From an uncultured Clostridia bacterium (GTDB lineage Bacteria > Bacillota > Clostridia > Christensenellales > UBA1242), in contig CATKXS010000002.1 of NCBI GenBank assembly GCA_949841045.1, forward strand, positions 30,246 through 94,245: a stretch of DNA of 64,000 nt, read 5' to 3'. Under the pieces are notes generated by a model. It was given only the letters and a program-made list of their open reading frames with translations. It ran no database searches and was not told the DNA's origin. The position numbers were made by a program, and so were the translations under genes. Of this stretch, positions 5,789 to 55,977 are shown piece by piece; the stretch's first letter is position 1; each line of letters opens with the position of its first letter.

Positions 5789-7059
5789 TAGTTTTCTCCT
5801 CTAAATTTTTTTCTTATCAAATTTTTCTCTCTGCCATTTTTGCTAGGAGTATAATAAACCCTATCTTTCAAAGCATCTGGCAAATATTGTTGTTTTACGT
5901 AACCACCATAGTCATGTGGGTATTTATATTTTCCATGCCCGTCACCATTAGTGCTTGGATGATTTTTTAAATGGTTTGGCACTTTATTATCTGTAAAATT
6001 CACCGCGTCATCACTTGCTTTATGCATAGCTTCAATAACAGAATTGGACTTTTCTGCTTCGCATACATAAATTATTGCATGCGTTAGCGGAATAAGCCCT
6101 TCAGGCTGTCCCATTTTTTCAAGAGCATACATTGCGCTTGTTGAAAGAAGTAGTGCATTTGAATCTGCCATGCCAACATCTTCTGATGAATGTGCAACAA
6201 GGCGCCTAGCTATAATCATCGGGTCACAACCCGCTTTAATAAGCCTTTGACTATAATACAGCGCGCCCTCAACATCACTTCCTCTTAAACTTTTACAAAA
6301 AGCAGAAAGAAAATCATAATACATGCTCTCGTCAAGAGAAAGCGCTTTTCTGTCAGTTGATTGTTCGGCCACCTCTCTGTTTACAACAATTTTTCTTTCC
6401 TTATTGAGTGGCGTGGTCATAACTGCAAGTTCAAGAGAATTGAGTGAACTTCTTAAATCTCCACCACATGCAAACGCAATATAGTCAAGAGCATCATCAT
6501 CTATTTCAACAGGTAAAGAGCCAAGTCCACTTTCCTTGTCTACAATAGCACGTTTGAGTGCTTTTTTAATATCCTTTGATGTAAGTGATTTAAATTCAAA
6601 AACCCTGCACCTTGATACAATAGCTCTTGTCATTGAAGTATATGGATTTTCGGTTGTCGTTCCTATAAAGAAAATCGAGCCGTCTTCAATCGCCTCTAAA
6701 ACACAATCTGATTGAGCTTTGTTCCAGCGATGACATTCGTCAAGAATAAGAAAGGTGTCTGTATTAAACATAGCCTTATCTGTTCTTGCTCTCTCTATAA
6801 TCGCCTTTGCGTCACCCACACCACTTGTCACGGCATTGAGTTTTACATAGTTTGCTTTGAGTGTTTTTGCAATAATATTTCCAAGCGTTGTCTTGCCAGT
6901 GCCAGGAGGGCCATAAAATATACAGCTACCCAGTGAACCAAACTTGATAGCCCTATAAAGCAAAGTATTTGTACCAACGATGTGTTCCTGCCCAACAAAG
7001 TCATCAAAGGACTTTGGGCGCATTCTTTCAGCAAGAGGAACGCGAGTATTATTTTCCAC
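5788..7059 (-). CDS. rarA: replication-associated recombination protein A (AAA+ ATPase RarA/MgsA)
   Basis: LAERMRP..FDDFVGQEHI, Walker A GPPGTGKTT, Walker B ILDECHRWNK, and the MgsA C-terminal domain (YYD..SAF.KS.RGSD..AALYY). 423 aa. Confidence 0.92.
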   Translation of the reverse strand: MENNTRVPLAERMRPKSFDDFVGQEHIVGTNTLLYRAIKFGSLGSCIFYGPPGTGKTTLGNIIAKTLKANYVKLNAVTSGVGDAKAIIERARTDKAMFNTDTFLILDECHRWNKAQSDCVLEAIEDGSIFFIGTTTENPYTSMTRAIVSRCRVFEFKSLTSKDIKKALKRAIVDKESGLGSLPVEIDDDALDYIAFACGGDLRSSLNSLELAVMTTPLNKERKIVVNREVAEQSTDRKALSLDESMYYDFLSAFCKSLRGSDVEGALYYSQRLIKAGCDPMIIARRLVAHSSEDVGMADSNALLLSTSAMYALEKMGQPEGLIPLTHAIIYVCEAEKSNSVIEAMHKASDDAVNFTDNKVPNHLKNHPSTNGDGHGKYKYPHDYGGYVKQQYLPDALKDRVYYTPSKNGREKNLIRKKFRGEN

Positions 7060-8421: not shown

Positions 8422-8447
8422 TAAAAAAAGCCGACTTCAAGAGCCGG
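8422..8447 (-). terminator. intrinsic terminator of rnpB
   Basis: The minus strand reads CCGGC-UCUUGAA-GUCGG followed by CUUUUUUUAU. Confidence 0.7.
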
Positions 8448-8772
8448 TTAGTTATGCTGTAAGCCGAGTTCTGTATTAGACAATCATCTATCTAGCCCTA
8501 TCGTTGCCGACAGGTTCAAGCGGTGCTAAAGGGCGTGAGAGAACAAGCACATATTGCCCTTATAACCTTGCATCAGGTGGGGTTTACAGAGCCTTGATTA
8601 TCTCCAATCAAGCGGTGGTCTCTTACACCACCTTTCCATCCTTACCATAAAATGGCGGTTTATTTCTGTTGCACTATCCCTAGAGTCGCCTCCGCTGGCC
8701 GTTAGCCAGCACCCAGTTCTCTTGATGCTCGGACTTTCCTCATCATAAAGACGCGATTGTCTGCATAACTAC
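8448..8772 (-). ncRNA. rnpB: RNase P RNA (ribozyme component)
   Basis: The minus strand contains GAGGAAAGUCCGAGC (CR-I) near the 5' end and ACAGAACUCGGCUUACAGC near the 3' end. P1 pairs GTTATGC (rc of 8763-8769) with GCATAAC (rc of 8451-8457). GC is elevated relative to the flanks. A consensus promoter is positioned to start transcription near 8772. Ends are good to about +/-5 nt. Confidence 0.9.
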
Positions 8773-8811: not shown

Positions 8812-10179
8812 TTAGCCAACAGTAAATAGTGAATTCACCCTATTCTGTTTTTTGTCTGTATAGAAAGCTTTTATAATTCCATCTTGAGAAATTTTAATCG
8901 CCGTTCCATATTTTGATAAAGTTGTTGCAGCAGCAAGTCTTCCACCGCCTTCACTGCCCGCTTCAATCTTGAGAATAGCGCCTACAGCGATTATAGTACC
9001 TTCACTGTCAACAACAACAGCTCCGTCCATACTTACAAGTTCTAGTCTAAGTTTTCTTGAAAGTTCATGAAATGGTCTGCCGTTGATAATTTTTCTCAGG
9101 CATTGAGCTTTTACACATTTTTGTTCACGAAGAAAAGTTATATAAGGAACATTGTAGACAGCTTCAACAGATGAAAGCGATTGAATGTTATAAAGTCTAC
9201 CCGCCACTTCAAGCACTTGCGCCTTTTTAATTTCAAAGTATTTTTCATTGATTATGTCATGAGCATTGATATGTGTAAGCGCATTCTCAGTATCGTCTTT
9301 ATTCAGATAGACGATACAACCACCATTATAGGAATATGAGGTGTCAAGAGCAGTATAATAAATGGAACGTCTTATATCTTTAAGTGAATAATTGCCACGA
9401 TATGAAAGCATTTGAATAACTTCTTCGTGAGAATAAATATTCCACCTGCCAAGCCTGTTGGCAAATAAAAGATTTCTATTTTTAAATATTAAAATATCTC
9501 CTGTTTTAGTGAGAACAATTCCAATTCTACGTTCATTGCAATATCTTGCGATATTTTCATATTCAAACGGACAAATAGTAGGAACTTTTTTAACTTTATC
9601 CACTTGAACATAACCAATCAAGTTGCCCTTTTTGTCAAACTCTAAATTTGAATTTACACCATCAGTTAAAAGAGCAAAAAAGTCCTTGTTCATGATTTCA
9701 TTAAAACTAAGCACATCATCTTGCCCGCTTATATCTATTGAGAGATTAAGAATGATACCTATATCAACCTTTCGTCCTTCGTAAGTTCTTGCCGCCCACT
9801 TTTCAATTCCGTTAATGATTGCAAACATACAATTTGCTGTTTCTTGCTCACAAATTGATTGACAAATAGACTTTTCAATTGCATTTTCTTGTAATACTGA
9901 CAAATAACTGTCATCTTCAAGTTGAATAACAGCAATTTTATTAATTTCTGCAATAATAGATTTTAAAAGGTCAACTTCAAAAACTTGAAAAGGTTGTCCC
10001 CTTTTTAGTATGATACGATATTCATCTGATTTAGTTGGTTTTAAAAGAAGAGAGTTCTTCTTTCCGTATGCAACTTCATTATCTCGCAAAGAAGAAGGCT
10101 CCTCTCCATCAATAAAAGAACCTGTAAATAAAGGTAATATAAGTTTGTTTACAAATTTATAAAACTGTTGCTTCTCCAT
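8812..10179 (-). CDS. diadenylate cyclase (DisA_N/DAC)-like domain protein with an uncharacterised N-terminal region
   Basis: The C-terminal ~170 aa follow the DAC pattern. GGCIVYL corresponds to GALIVI, MDGAVVVDSEGTIIAVGAIL to HDGAVII.g.I.AAgc.L, GGGRLAAATTLS to GTRHRAA.G.S, and AIKISQDGIIK to VSEETG.IS. The RHR motif is replaced by GRL. Confidence 0.55.
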   Translation of the reverse strand: MEKQQFYKFVNKLILPLFTGSFIDGEEPSSLRDNEVAYGKKNSLLLKPTKSDEYRIILKRGQPFQVFEVDLLKSIIAEINKIAVIQLEDDSYLSVLQENAIEKSICQSICEQETANCMFAIINGIEKWAARTYEGRKVDIGIILNLSIDISGQDDVLSFNEIMNKDFFALLTDGVNSNLEFDKKGNLIGYVQVDKVKKVPTICPFEYENIARYCNERRIGIVLTKTGDILIFKNRNLLFANRLGRWNIYSHEEVIQMLSYRGNYSLKDIRRSIYYTALDTSYSYNGGCIVYLNKDDTENALTHINAHDIINEKYFEIKKAQVLEVAGRLYNIQSLSSVEAVYNVPYITFLREQKCVKAQCLRKIINGRPFHELSRKLRLELVSMDGAVVVDSEGTIIAVGAILKIEAGSEGGGRLAAATTLSKYGTAIKISQDGIIKAFYTDKKQNRVNSLFTVG

Positions 10180-24482: not shown

Positions 24483-24571
24483 GCAGAGGTGGTCGAGCGG
24501 TTTAAGGCGCACGCTTGGAAAGCGTGTGAGGTTAATAGCCTCCGCAGGTTCAAATCCTGTCCTCTGCGCCA
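24483..24571 (+). tRNA. tRNA-Ser (anticodon GGA), CCA encoded
   Basis: Acceptor GCAGAGG / CCTCTGC, anticodon arm CACGC-TTGGAAA-GCGTG (anticodon GGA), long variable arm (GAGGTTAATAGCCTC), T arm GCAGG-TTCAAAT-CCTGT, discriminator G plus CCA. Confidence 0.92.
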
Positions 24572-32680: not shown

Positions 32681-33319
32681 ATGATAAATCTTGAAATGAC
32701 AAAAAAATCTTCTTCAATCCTTGTCAGCCTTGGACTTCTTGCAATAAGTCTTATTTTATTGCTTATATTCTTTATCTATCGAAATAGTACAAGCAGTTTT
32801 GACAGCACCATATTTTCTCTTCAAGCAAACAATATTGATATGCAAGTCGGTGATAAAAAGACAAATTATTTTTACCTTACTCATAAAGAAGCCTCTCTCG
32901 ATATAACCACGGAAGACAAAGAAATAATTTATGTCGATGAAGAAAAGATTATTGGTCTTAAGCCAGGTATTGCAAATGTTTCAATAAAAGCTTCACTTGA
33001 AAATGTTACCCTGTCGACAACAATAGTCGTAAAAGTTTTCAATGATGATTACTTAATTAAATTTGATATTTTAGAAGGCGGATATTTTAGCGATAATATA
33101 CTTTGCCTTGAAAATGAAACCTGCCAATTCAAACTTAAGCTTTATGATAAATTAAATAGACAAGTAAGCGATGCTAACTTTAACATTTTACTATCAGGAA
33201 ACAGCGTTATTGACTATCAATTTGGAAATTACATAATCTGCTGTAAAGAAGATTGCTATATGCAAATTTCTGCAAACGAAAATATTAATTTCGCCTTCAA
33301 AATAAAACATGTTAAGTGA
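32681..33319 (+). CDS. membrane-anchored hypothetical protein, possibly with a bacterial Ig-like (Big_2-type) domain
   Basis: N-terminal TM helix. IIGLKPGIANVSIKAS resembles the Big_2 motif. 212 aa. Confidence 0.5.
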   Translation: MINLEMTKKSSSILVSLGLLAISLILLLIFFIYRNSTSSFDSTIFSLQANNIDMQVGDKKTNYFYLTHKEASLDITTEDKEIIYVDEEKIIGLKPGIANVSIKASLENVTLSTTIVVKVFNDDYLIKFDILEGGYFSDNILCLENETCQFKLKLYDKLNRQVSDANFNILLSGNSVIDYQFGNYIICCKEDCYMQISANENINFAFKIKHVK

Positions 33320-33331
33320 TAATATTGAATT

Positions 33332-33368
33332 AAAAAATCATCCGAATGGCTATAAACTTTGAAACTAG
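33332..33368 (+). repeat. left inverted-repeat arm of cassette B (AAAAAATCATCCGAATGGCTATAAACTTTGAAACTAG)
   Basis: Read directly. The partner is at 34497-34534. The inner 21 nt are nearly identical to 659-679. Confidence 0.75.
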
Positions 33369-33402
33369 CAAAAAATGAACTAAATTTATAGTTCATTTTT
33401 TG
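33369..33402. terminator. bidirectional intrinsic terminator hairpin
   Basis: An A-run, stem ATGAACTA (33375-33382) pairing with TAGTTCAT (33389-33396), then a T-run. It serves the convergent genes on both sides. Confidence 0.75.
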
Positions 33403-33452
33403 TTGAAATGCTAACAATAAAATATATCAAATTTTTCATGCTAAATTGAAAT

Positions 33453-34043
33453 TTAATTTTTATCAAAATTTTTATAAACAAATTTTACTATGACTTTATT
33501 GAGAAAATAAAACTCATAAGCGATAGCGATACTGCCTAATGCGCCGCCGATTACAATGGCTGCCATTATGCCTGCACCCATTTGAATGGGGTCAAGAAAT
33601 GAATGTATAAAATCTTGGGTAATAACGCCGTGAATTTGAGAAAATAAATAATAAATGGCAATAGGAATAATGGTAATCGGAACAAGTCGCAATTTACACT
33701 CTTGCATTGTTAAAAATAGTGTATATAACATAGAAAATAAAGGATTTAATAAATGTAGAAAGAGCATATTTCCGATGAACCCTTGTTGAAAAACTATCGA
33801 GCCAAGCATTACTATAATTAAAAGAGTTGACGGCATAAGAAACAATAAATGTGGTATCTTAATTTTTAGTAATACCAAAACTCCACTAACGAAATAAAAT
33901 ATTCCACTAAAAAAATTGCTAATGAAAGTAAGTTCTATTCCAAAACCTTGCCACTCAATACAGGGTAAGACAATAAACCAACACCCTAAAATAATAGCAC
34001 CTATACCAGAAATTAAATTAAAGATTTTATTTACTTCTTTCAT
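33453..34043 (-). CDS. polytopic membrane protein (196 aa), passenger of cassette B
   Basis: ORF track. About 6 hydrophobic segments. It has its own TTGATA-17-TATTAT promoter-like sequence and a GGAG RBS upstream. Confidence 0.65.
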   Translation of the reverse strand: MKEVNKIFNLISGIGAIILGCWFIVLPCIEWQGFGIELTFISNFFSGIFYFVSGVLVLLKIKIPHLLFLMPSTLLIIVMLGSIVFQQGFIGNMLFLHLLNPLFSMLYTLFLTMQECKLRLVPITIIPIAIYYLFSQIHGVITQDFIHSFLDPIQMGAGIMAAIVIGGALGSIAIAYEFYFLNKVIVKFVYKNFDKN

Positions 34044-34496
34044 ACATTACTCCAAAGTTAAATTATTATATATCTAATAAAAATTATAATATAATCTTCT
34101 TAAATTTGTATCAAAAATTACAAAAAAAATTATAAAAAATTAATACTTTGACATTTAGGCGTGTGCTTGTTTATACAAGTGCTGTCGCTTCGCTCCAGCA
34201 GACAAGCACACACCACCAAATCGATTTTGTTGCAAAAAAGCGAAAGTGTTGGCAGAGCATACACACTTCCGCTTTTTGCTTTTTGTTTTTTGTTTTCTTC
34301 TCTCAATTTTCTAGTGTAAGCGAATATTCTTTGTTGTCAAGGTCAATGCGAGTGTCTTATGAATTTTAGAATTGTTATGTACACGACAACCTGTGACAAC
34401 GGCAGAAATATTCGCTTTTTTGGCAGTTAAGAGAGAGTAAGGTAAAAAAGAAAGCATAGGTGTTTATTTTTCGCCTATGTTTCTAAAATAATTACG

Positions 34497-34534
34497 CTAG
34501 TTTCAAAATGGATAGACTAATGGATGATTTTTTT
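34497..34534 (-). repeat. right inverted-repeat arm of cassette B
   Basis: The reverse complement reads AAAAAAATCATCCATTAGTCTATCCATTTTGAAACTAG. Confidence 0.75.
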
Positions 34535-34578
34535 ATATTGAAGACTTTTGTTTGTAAACCGAAATCATTTAATCATTT

Positions 34579-35733
34579 TTACCATGTGGTAACTACTTTA
34601 TCAAAGCAGTCTTTAAGTGATACTTTGTCAAGTTTTGTCTTTGTAATTAAGTTAATTTCTTTAATAACATTTCCATCTTTTGAGATATAAATCTTTCCTA
34701 CCTTCTCACCTTTTGCAGTAGGCGCATTTACCTTTTTAGGATTATCGTAAGTTATTTCAAAACTTGATTTATCGCCTTTCTTAACAACAACTGAATATTC
34801 TTCCTCACCGCAAAGCTCAACTTCTTCCTGTTTACCTTTGTTTACCGGCAATGTGAGAAGCGTTTTATCAAGACTAACAAGCTCTCTGTTTTCAAAGTTT
34901 GCAAAGCCATAATTGAATAATTTTGAGCATTCATTAAATCTAGTTTGACTGTTTGGAGCACCAATAATTACAGAGATAAGCCTCATATTATTTCTTTTAG
35001 CTGACGCCGAAAGACAGCACCCAGCTTCATTTGTTGACCCTGTCTTTCCACTATCACAACCATCATAATATTTTACAAGACGGTTTGTATTAACAATTCC
35101 AGTCTTTCTTCCAGATGGGTGTACAATATCGTCCATCCAAATGGTGCTATATTTATGATAAATATCATGTTCTGCAACTGCTTTTAATACAACAGCGCAG
35201 TCTTTTGCACAAGAATATTGTTCAGGAGCAGGAAGTCCTGTGCAGTTAGAATAATTGGTATTTTTCATTCCAAGCTCTTTAGCTCTTTCATTCATCCTAG
35301 AAACAAAGACTTTTTCACTTCCGCTAATATGTTCAGCAAGAGCAACAGAAGCATCATTGGCCGATGCAATAATAACACTCTTTAAGAGGTCGCCCGCTTT
35401 ATATTCTACAAATGGGTCGATAAATACTTGGCTTCCGCCCATTCCTGAAGCATTTTCAGAAGTGGTGATAAGAGTCTCTTCTGTGAGATTTCCTCCCTCA
35501 ATTTCTTCAAGAGTGATAAGTATCGTCATCATCTTAACCATACTTGCAATTGGCAAATGTTCTTCGCTATTTTTTTCATACAGTATGTTTCCAGAAACAT
35601 AATCAACAAGGCATGCACTTTTACTTGCAAGGTCAATATCTTCATCAGCAAAAGCAATTGTTTGCATATTAGCACAAAATGTAGTAGCAAGTATGCATAG
35701 CATAATACTAAATATCAATATCTTTTTTAACAT
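34579..35733 (-). CDS. D-alanyl-D-alanine carboxypeptidase (low-molecular-weight PBP, S11 family)
   Basis: Signal/anchor sequence, SMVKMMT (SxxK), SANDAS (SxN) and KTGST (KTG). Start chosen at MLKKIL (35733), 9 nt after AAGGAG. Confidence 0.9.
   Translation of the reverse strand: MLKKILIFSIMLCILATTFCANMQTIAFADEDIDLASKSACLVDYVSGNILYEKNSEEHLPIASMVKMMTILITLEEIEGGNLTEETLITTSENASGMGGSQVFIDPFVEYKAGDLLKSVIIASANDASVALAEHISGSEKVFVSRMNERAKELGMKNTNYSNCTGLPAPEQYSCAKDCAVVLKAVAEHDIYHKYSTIWMDDIVHPSGRKTGIVNTNRLVKYYDGCDSGKTGSTNEAGCCLSASAKRNNMRLISVIIGAPNSQTRFNECSKLFNYGFANFENRELVSLDKTLLTLPVNKGKQEEVELCGEEEYSVVVKKGDKSSFEITYDNPKKVNAPTAKGEKVGKIYISKDGNVIKEINLITKTKLDKVSLKDCFDKVVTTW

Positions 35734-54450: not shown

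Positions 54451-55977
<1,527 letters not shown>

Follow-up and report, generated by a model that had tools for sequence, protein, structure and literature searches.

Small gene cassettes in transcription terminator loops of uncultured Clostridia, probably mobilized in trans by a large serine recombinase

The attP sites of large serine recombinases are imperfect palindromes of ~40–50 bp that are centred on a crossover dinucleotide. Transposons and integrative elements with relaxed target choice, namely Tn4451/Tn4453 (TnpX), Tn5397 (TndX), and those of multi-targeting large serine recombinases, are described as having the recombinase gene at one end, a 2-bp crossover at both junctions, imperfectly palindromic joined ends, many insertion sites, and Clostridia as hosts. 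Here, we describe a family of elements with these same features through a member identified in a 64,000-nucleotide stretch of DNA from an uncultured Clostridia bacterium (assembly GCA_949841045.1, contig CATKXS010000002.1, positions 30,246 to 94,245; hereafter, the window). Positions 33347–34518 of the window most probably comprise a 1,172-bp non-autonomous integrative cassette that is bounded by recombinase attachment sites and is mobilized in trans by a serine recombinase whose targets are the loops of transcription terminators. Whereas the targets of TnpX/TndX-type elements resemble the element joint and contain GA, the cassettes target terminator loops with TT or AT. Moreover, the end sequences of the cassettes are unrelated to those of TnpX/TndX-type elements and are shared by a large population of recombinase-less cassettes that express their own cargo.

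Several other described systems overlap with this family in part. Staphylococcal cassette chromosome elements (SCCmec and pseudo-SCC, with recombinases CcrAB) are likewise bounded by recombinase sites, and some depend on a recombinase in trans, but they occupy only one site, in tandem, at the 3' end of rlmH, whereas the present cassettes are dispersed over many terminators. [quoted passage not shown] However, they derive from insertion sequences (IS) with DDE transposases and generate duplications of fixed length, in contrast to the 2-nt duplication, dissimilar tips, and serine recombinase partner found here. Integron cassettes also form a pool of small, mostly single-gene units with diverse accessory cargo, site-specific capture, and hairpin-forming DNA, but the cassettes described here have no attC, IntI, attI platform, or array and are instead scattered singletons with their own promoter and terminators. 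No tyrosine recombinase was linked to the cassette ends, the sole one seen (L079:60-743) being ~4.5 kb outside of a cassette. IS110/IS1111 elements with bridge RNA, which are characterized by a DEDD recombinase and a 5' non-coding guide RNA, resemble the family in their subterminal inverted repeats, 2-nt core, and hairpin targets. Lastly, group IIC introns home to intrinsic terminator stem-loops, which limits harm to the host (PMC1702495), and thus share the terminator niche. These introns are ribozymes (domains D5/D6) that retrohome just downstream of the hairpin, whereas the cassettes are inside the loop and gave no match to a group II family in Rfam at E ≤ 10. No description of such elements was found in the literature that we searched, coverage of which was incomplete such that an earlier description is possible, and the family is apparently undescribed.

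A cassette family in split terminators

The window is a fragment of a chromosome (~34% G+C) that carries 16S rRNA, RNase P RNA, and housekeeping genes. The cassette is inserted at TT within the 4-nt loop of a bidirectional intrinsic terminator located between a gene for a 212-aa protein and a convergent dacB (D-Ala-D-Ala carboxypeptidase). A preliminary description of the window had noted a 1.2-kb single-gene unit bounded by 37-bp inverted repeats and an 8-bp direct duplication, and all of the features that it listed (arms, 8-mer, 196-aa open reading frame (ORF), promoter, and a hairpin-rich stretch at ~34115–34495) were recovered in our analysis at the coordinates given there. The inverted arms (33329–33369 and 34496–34536; 41 nt, 78% complementary) exceed chance: the best long-range inverted-repeat score in the interval 33000–35000 was 23 when compared to 15.0 ± 1.5 in 200 dinucleotide shuffles, only 1 of which reached this value, and a degenerate consensus of the arms matched the window twice where 0.00 matches were expected. 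The arms are nevertheless not the inverted repeats of the element, but rather are composite. Their outer 12–13 nt, which vary between copies, are the halves of a host terminator stem, and their inner 23 nt, which are conserved, are the ends of the element and contain TTTGAAACTAGC. The flanking 8-mer, ATATTGAA, had been taken for a target-site duplication but is a chance repeat. Direct repeats of at least 8 nt were detected within the 33-nt outer flanks of 5.2% of mismatched-flank controls and of 2 of 44 family members, which is the expected number, and none of the other 43 copies has a flanking duplication comparable to ATATTGAA. The true duplication is 2 nt (TT).

Scanning one genome per species (185,579 species) with a degenerate pattern of the inner arm (GCTAGTTTCAAARKKKAKWRMC) returned 103 stretches in 66 assemblies, with at most 6 positive 8-kb blocks per genome. 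Uncultured gut or rumen Clostridia that are labelled Eubacteriales, Christensenellaceae, or Ca. Onthoplasma account for 61 of these assemblies; the remaining 5 are from other phyla and are evident chance matches. A pattern that joined the outer and inner blocks of the arms had no match in the loci searched first, the outer block being target DNA. Ends are of two types (given from the tip inwards), A (AGTCACTnAnTTTTGAAACTAGC) and B (GGGCTATAAAyTTTGAAACTAGC), which share (C/T)TTTGAAACTAGC at positions 10–23 from the tip but differ at their extreme tips (AGTCAC vs GGGCTA). In total, 44 inverted A/B pairs bound units of 725–3,698 bp, and these complete cassettes, together with element ends in 61 species genomes, are the further copies that the preliminary description had proposed to look for. 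The units have a common plan which, from A to B, comprises the A end, a terminator hairpin with variable stem sequence, a near-invariant module of ~330 nt, a promoter, one or more cargo ORFs, a terminator, and the B end. The terminator beside the B end (A-run/hairpin/T-run) is present in every family member, and a cargo promoter at the position equivalent to that of promoter P2 in the window, mostly with a TG-extended TATAAT, is present in ~30 of the 44 cassettes.

The same cassette is found at different loci. Homologs of the 196-aa protein form 18 clusters at 70–98% identity, and copies at 90–98% identity occupy at least four unrelated gene neighbourhoods. The whole 1.16-kb unit is 92–98% identical in L001, L002, and L004, where it is located between MscL and a 141-aa gene, and in L003, where it is beside a GtrA-like gene. 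Homology among these copies ends inside the arms, at window positions 33350 and 34508, and the outer 12 nt of the two arms are inverted repeats of one another within a locus but locus specific (AAAAAATCATCC / GGATGATTTTTT in the window and AAAAAACAAGGC / GCCTTGTTTTTT in L001). Other cargo behaves alike, with an identical 245-aa short-chain dehydrogenase (SDR) in L024, L048, and L057 and an identical 141-aa ORF in L046, L092, and L101, among others, each with differing flanks.

Outside both ends of essentially every one of the 44 pairs, 5–9 variable nt are followed by a T-run, and the two flanks are mutually reverse complementary and locus specific. Since the flanks read alike outwards on both sides, they are the two halves of one hairpin. 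The junctions have the form n(0-3)-TT|AGTC... at the A side and ...CCC|TT-n(0-3) at the B side. The junctions show TT|TT in 41 of the 44 cassettes but AT|AT in 2, which indicates that the dinucleotide derives from the target. When insertion sites were reconstructed by deleting each element together with one copy of the dinucleotide, nearly all yielded a hairpin with the order A-run/stem/3–7-nt loop/stem/T-run. The mean minimum free energy of the reconstructed sites was −13.1 kcal/mol when compared to −6.3 ± 3.0 kcal/mol for mismatched flank pairs, and 89% of sites folded at ≤ −8 kcal/mol when compared to 27% of these controls. The reconstructed site of the window, AAAAAATCATCC-GAAT-GGATGATTTTTTT on the plus strand, folds at −13.3 kcal/mol, and the predicted empty site reads AAAAAATCATCCGAATGGATGATTTTTTT. 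Target half-sites have T at 80–98% frequency at positions 9–13 from the dinucleotide, and element ends have TTTT at positions 11–14. A sequence-defined attB was not apparent among the reconstructed sites: the stems vary freely, and only three features are constant, namely dyad symmetry, the dinucleotide in the loop, and the A and T tracts on either side. It is here that the family deviates most from classical serine integrases.

Uninterrupted counterparts of occupied sites were identified in related genomes. The clearest case is the MscL terminator, which in L166, from a relative with a 90% identical MscL, is intact (AAACAAGGC-TGATTG-GCCTTGTTTTTT, −15.2 kcal/mol). In L001 and L163, the same terminator stems are split by the 196-aa cassette (AAAAAACAAGGC-TT|cassette|TT-AGT-GCCTTGTTTTTT). 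Three comparisons of more divergent orthologous loci agree with this case. The tuf terminator that is split in L051 is intact in L072, with 16 identical outer nucleotides, and the L101 site has an uninterrupted counterpart in L039. The gene order of the window (212-aa gene and dacB) is kept in L014, where a 127-bp spacer contains a single intact terminator. Uninterrupted sites had been anticipated in the preliminary description, although the sequence that it predicted for them (...GTGATAATATTGAAGACTTTTG...) was wrong and the reconstructed one is ...ATATTGAATTAAAAAATCATCCGAATGGATGATTTTTTTATATTGAAG.... Two short-read contigs (L164 and L165) break within the conserved module, as expected for a repeat that is present in multiple copies.

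Recombinase-bearing members of the family

A Pfam scan of ORFs inside unpaired ends identified a 500-aa large serine recombinase in L052, the stop codon of which is ~230 nt from an A end. The protein has Resolvase (PF00239, 4.8e-27), Recombinase (PF07508), and Zn_ribbon_recom (PF13408) domains, and its nearest NCBIfam families are CcrB, XisF, and CcrA, all far under the respective cut-offs (108 bits vs 900). L052 is next to L073 on the same contig, and the two blocks together contain a single 8.26-kb element comprising, in order, the A end, the recombinase gene, a type I restriction-modification system (HsdM, HsdS, HsdR), and the B end. This element is flanked by a split hairpin with a 2-nt duplication (AAAAAACACACT-AT|...|AT-TAA-AGTGTGTTTTTTT). 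Two additional complete elements were identified, the junction dinucleotide of both being AA (the complement of TT). The first, in L125 (7.6 kb), encodes the recombinase, PDDEXK_4/WYL/DnaB_C, a 210-aa ORF, and a Rep-like PF23343 protein; the second, in L134 (8.0 kb), encodes the recombinase, a Schlafen/AlbA_2 protein, a Dam-type methylase, and a HerA-like protein. In all three elements the recombinase gene reads into the A end, the B end is at the far side, and the flanks form a split hairpin. Full-length members with a recombinase, which the preliminary description had envisaged as autonomous copies, therefore exist.

The A end is physically linked to one clade of serine recombinases. A metagenome scan with the L052 recombinase returned 39 loci. 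Among full-length relatives at 67–77% identity, all 13 have a terminator downstream of the recombinase gene and 12 of 13 have an A-type end and a T-run 51–279 nt past the stop codon. The exceptions or variants among close relatives are L132, which has a variant core, and L128, the contig of which is cut at a variant motif. An A-type end is also present at three fragmentary loci at 63–66% identity (L160–L162), but in none of ~23 relatives at 38–50% identity. Traces of the link are also evident within cassettes, since that in L038 keeps a relic of the recombinase C-terminus (37 codons), and the PDDEXK_4/WYL/DnaB_C gene trio of the recombinase-bearing element in L125 recurs in the cassette in L041. 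A further link is hairpin 3 of the cassette module (Table 1), which is also found inside recombinase-bearing elements. No close relative of the L052 recombinase was detected in IMG/VR.

The layout of the ends is that of attachment sites. When joined, the ends of the window cassette would form an imperfect palindrome of ~48 bp (GCTAGTTTCAAAGTTTATAGCCA-TT-AGTCTATCCATTTTGAAACTAGC). An identical 2-nt dinucleotide at both junctions combined with a palindromic joined end of this length is a signature of serine recombinases, and the full-length members have such a recombinase beside one end. Because the joined ends have the layout of a large-serine-recombinase attP, the two junctions seen in the window would represent attL and attR. 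Collectively, the dispersed loci, the family, and its recombinase-bearing members argue for the general idea in the preliminary description, namely a non-autonomous, passenger-carrying mobile element that needs to be mobilized in trans. In contrast, the anatomy that it proposed (arms, duplication, and empty site) and the transposase mechanism that it implied are wrong.

Immediately upstream of the recombinase gene in L125 is a gene (8964–9830) for a Rep-like protein (PF23343, replication-associated protein ORF2/G2P), which hints that the excised circle may replicate.

Proposed mechanism and alternative explanations

The reading that we consider probable is that the window cassette was inserted, and would be excised in circular form, by a large serine recombinase that is encoded elsewhere. 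Cleavage would take place at the 2-nt crossover, the recombinase would tolerate a wide variety of terminator hairpins, and the conserved features of the targets suggest that it reads dyad symmetry and a T-tract 8–14 nt on either side of the loop rather than a fixed sequence. The excised circle, with a predicted junction of GCTAGTTTCAAAGTTTATAGCCATTAGTCTATCCATTTTGAAACTAGC for the window cassette, would then reintegrate into the loop of a different terminator, and cassettes such as this one would receive the recombinase in trans. Its cargo, the 196-aa membrane protein, would be expressed from its own promoter P2.

A number of observations weigh against this interpretation. The link between recombinase and cassettes is one of association in the sequence data, from which catalysis by this enzyme, its action in trans, the circular intermediate, and the role of the ~330-nt module are predicted. 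No relative of the L052 recombinase is encoded in the 64-kb window, in agreement with the preliminary description, which had reported the absence of a transposase, integrase, or invertase from it, and the species is rare in databases. Only one species genome in the end-pattern scan (CASXBC01) was seen to have both a cassette and a recombinase-bearing element, a low count that is explained by the failure of the scan pattern to match most A ends of the recombinase-bearing type. Abutted ends, as expected for a circle or tandem junction, were found neither in the 166 fetched loci nor in IMG/VR. As a rule, large serine recombinases depend on a defined attB (~40 bp), such that acceptance of variable stems would be unusual for them. 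An exact empty site for the window locus was not found, L014 being only ~82–84% identical; a close one is lacking because the 212-aa protein has a single homologue. The tips of the window copy have diverged from those of the family (AGTCTATCC vs AGTCACTnA and ...AGCCA vs ...AGCCC), which suggests that this cassette may no longer be mobile. Finally, covariation in the conserved module is sparse and gives no firm strand or RNA call.

The alternative that survives best, although we consider it unlikely, is that another agent that recognizes hairpins or single-stranded DNA moves the cassettes, with the serine recombinase being mere cargo or serving its own larger element. Candidates include a HUH/Rep-type protein as in L125, a host recombinase of the Xer type, or an RNA-guided enzyme for which the module would serve. 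Such an agent would account for targets that are defined by structure and not by sequence, for the Rep-like protein (PF23343) beside the recombinase in L125, and for the retention of a conserved, hairpin-rich module of 330 nt, one hairpin of which is common to recombinase-bearing elements. However, the gene for the Rep-like protein is absent from L052/L073 and L134, the A end keeps its place 51–279 nt from the recombinase stop codon across a whole clade, and the junction dinucleotide and palindromic joined end are those expected of a serine recombinase. In addition, no IS110-type (DEDD) enzyme was identified by Pfam among 60 selected ORFs or by motif expressions among 743 ORFs. The latter is a weak screen that detected no recombinase of any kind; since it also missed the L052 serine recombinase later found by Pfam, its blank result is no evidence of absence.

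Derivation from a DDE-type element, be it a MITE or a mobile insertion cassette with 37-bp terminal inverted repeats and an 8-bp duplication that is moved by an IS transposase, was the comparison drawn in the preliminary description. The unit is indeed bounded by inverted repeats, multi-copy, and furnished with a passenger gene but no transposase, and IS30-type and IS630-type enzymes are able to make 2–3-bp duplications. Nonetheless, the features at both junctions fit attL and attR of a large serine recombinase instead. The 8-mer is a chance repeat and the duplication is limited to 2 nt, each arm consists of target DNA over its outer third, and the tips differ, with the block that the ends have in common being subterminal. 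No DDE transposase was detected in 30 cargo ORFs, in 20 ORFs interior to ends, or in the recombinase-bearing elements that were scanned, and a serine recombinase is the sole enzyme of recombination to which the ends could be linked. We therefore regard a DDE origin as improbable.

It is more improbable still that the segment is not mobile and that its arms are independent, lineage-specific motifs associated with 3' untranslated regions or terminators that happen to enclose ordinary chromosome. Each arm is located between a host stop codon and a terminator, and a lone third A-type motif downstream of metK in L001 would be compatible with this view. Yet the entire interior moves with the ends to unrelated loci at 92–98% identity, relatives have intact terminators at the corresponding positions, and the outer flanks are complementary within a locus but different between loci. 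Inversion of the segment between its arms to switch expression, which the preliminary description had raised and which would suit inverted repeats that flank a promoter-bearing unit, is barely credible given that the window encodes no invertase, that excision is what a non-palindromic dinucleotide repeated in one orientation at the two junctions predicts, that 44 family members have unrelated cargo at unrelated loci, and that flipping a unit with its cargo promoter and terminator inside would change nothing obvious.

Returning to the serine recombinase interpretation, we tentatively extend it to the family as a whole, as a possibility rather than an expectation. The family may represent a dispersed, integron-like form of gene capture, in which one recombinase clade, thousands of terminator-loop landing pads, and a large pool of self-contained cassettes (with their own promoter, an insulating terminator at each end, and varied cargo) shuttled between genomes together spread accessory genes. 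The ~330-nt module would then be a required cis-acting part, which could be a replication or single-strand origin of the circle that is used by the Rep-like protein of autonomous elements or, alternatively, a structured RNA transcribed from P1 that assists or regulates recombination.

If the proposed mechanism is correct, a serine recombinase would choose its targets by DNA shape and symmetry (i.e., terminator hairpins) and not by sequence, which would be relevant to recombinase biology and possibly to the development of a tool for gene insertion at neutral sites. It would also represent a mode of accessory gene spread that mixes features of integrons (a cassette pool) and MITEs (dispersed non-autonomous copies), whereby restriction-modification and other defence functions, transporters, and enzymes are carried as cargo and the host is spared through repair of the split terminator. 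Such a mode would explain part of the variation in gene content among the abundant uncultured Clostridia of the gut and rumen (Christensenellales-like lineages). For annotators, the 23-nt signature and the target rule provide a means to detect such elements.

Cassette features, conserved module, and cargo

The features of the window cassette and its surroundings are compiled in Table 1. Based on their predicted folds, the B-proximal hairpin acts as terminator for the cargo gene and, on the plus strand, for the transcript of the upstream 212-aa host gene, and the A-proximal hairpin terminates the dacB transcript on the minus strand. The cassette thus supplies a terminator inside each end for both flanking host genes and thereby replaces the termination function that its insertion destroys.

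Table 1. Positions of the cassette, its target site, and other features in the window.
Feature	Position	Strand	Remark
Left half of split host bidirectional terminator stem, AAAAAATCATCC	33332..33343	+	target DNA, outside element; complementary to 34522-34534
Target dinucleotide, copy 1	33345..33346		AA on + strand, TT on cargo strand
B end of element	33347..33369	-	cargo strand GCTAGTTTCAAAGTTTATAGCCA; family consensus GCTAGTTTCAAARTTTATAGCCC
B-proximal bidirectional terminator hairpin	33369..33402		-18.0 kcal/mol on + strand, -15.6 on - strand
Cargo ORF	33453..34043	-	196-aa polytopic membrane protein
Ribosome-binding site of cargo ORF	34050-34053	-	GGAG
Cargo promoter P2	34114-34086	-	TTGATA-17-TATTAT
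Conserved hairpin-rich non-coding module	34115..34495	-	
Hairpin 3 of module	34158-34214		
Terminator-like hairpin 2 of module	34232-34279		
Giant hairpin of module	34299-34436		
Promoter-like P1	34340-34313	-	TTGACA-16-TACACT; inside giant hairpin
A-proximal terminator for dacB	34449-34484		plus T-run; -9.8 kcal/mol
A end of element	34496..34518	-	cargo strand AGTCTATCCATTTTGAAACTAGC; family consensus AGTCACTnAnTTTTGAAACTAGC
Target dinucleotide, copy 2	34519..34520		
Right half of split host terminator stem, GGATGATTTTTTT	34522..34534	+	
8-mer ATATTGAA	33322..33329 and 34535-34542	+	chance repeat, outside element
RNase P RNA (class A)	8444-8772		
Long-arm tRNA	24483-24568		
16S rRNA gene, complete	54451-55977		

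The hairpin-rich region had no match in Rfam, either for the whole window at the gathering threshold or for positions 33200–34700 at E ≤ 10. RNAalifold and counts of base pairs across 35 modules revealed no difference in folding between the two strands and only few compensatory pairs, and that the pairs on the cargo strand include 41 G-U and 19 A-C. Promoter-like P1 has the form (T)TGACA-16-TAnAnT in 43 of 44 cassettes, with variation only at weakly constrained −10 positions. Hairpin 3 (GGCGTGTGCTTGT...ACAAGCACACGCC, with an inner GGCGAGGCGAAGCCGAGCC stem) is also present inside recombinase-bearing elements (L125, 7359–7427; L134, 9543–9610), upstream of the Rep-like and recombinase genes, and could be an origin or a regulatory element. 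Neither the ends nor the module matched the PLSDB plasmid collection, and a phage collection gave a single 57-nt match, to hairpin 3, in an unannotated faecal bacteriophage record (MT835493.1, 30529–30586).

Isolated or combined ends were observed at several loci. In L001 (3440–3486), a lone A-type end (GCTAGTTTCAAAATTGAGTAACTAAAG) with part of the A-proximal terminator but no partner end is located just 3' of the metK stop codon and may be the remnant of an excised or decayed cassette. Abutted or nested end-like sequences were detected in L082 (2838–2960), L104 (~6590–6710), and L034, L083, L086, and L103, in the order B-type end, TT, A-like end with a variant core (TTTTGAAACTAAT or TTTTCAAACTAAT), terminator, and another end. 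Units of ~90 bp in L034, L083, L086, and L103 were considered as MITE-like mini-elements, but were rejected since they share a common left flank and are not independent insertions.

Among 30 cargo ORFs that were scanned against Pfam, none encodes a recombinase. Identified cargo includes restriction-modification (HaeIII endonuclease and C5 methylase) and defence-like proteins (PDDEXK_4, WYL, and DnaB_C); membrane proteins and transporters (NMN transporter, MFS transporter, and rhomboid); a variety of enzymes (SDR, inositol monophosphatase, isochorismatase, NUDIX, GDSL hydrolase, YdjC, 2-hydroxyacid dehydrogenase, a PheRS-like protein, radical SAM with ATP-grasp, and cysteine desulfurase); and an FtsZ/tubulin-like protein. 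The PheRS-like protein, encoded by a 387-aa ORF in the L053 cassette, is a single-chain form with tRNA-synt_2d and FDX-ACB anticodon-binding domains, an unusual accessory cargo.

The 196-aa cargo protein of the window had no Pfam match, with only weak, sub-threshold similarity to the Pr6Pr membrane-protein family, and an exact look-up of it and of the 212-aa protein returned no database record. The ORF alone (window 33442–34065, with 22 nt upstream and ~13 nt downstream) was observed without cassette ends, at 93–96% nucleotide identity, in hosts of ~50% G+C. These copies (L005, 5979–6963; L011, ~5980–6602) have breakpoints that are alike in three contexts (TAATTTAAC... / ...TAAATTTCAATTTA), which suggests a second, different transfer route for the gene. 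In L005, the low-G+C island contains a second ORF (111 aa) that is likewise followed by TAAATTTCAATTT, and a direct repeat, AATATGAAA(A)CA, borders the island on both sides. More distant homologues (75–79% identity) in L016 and L018 (4278–8852) are part of a conserved operon-like context with the order TfoX_C, GNAT acetyltransferase, metallo-beta-lactamase fold, 196-aa gene, FAD-binding protein, and AraC regulator, which may be the original setting of the 196-aa gene.

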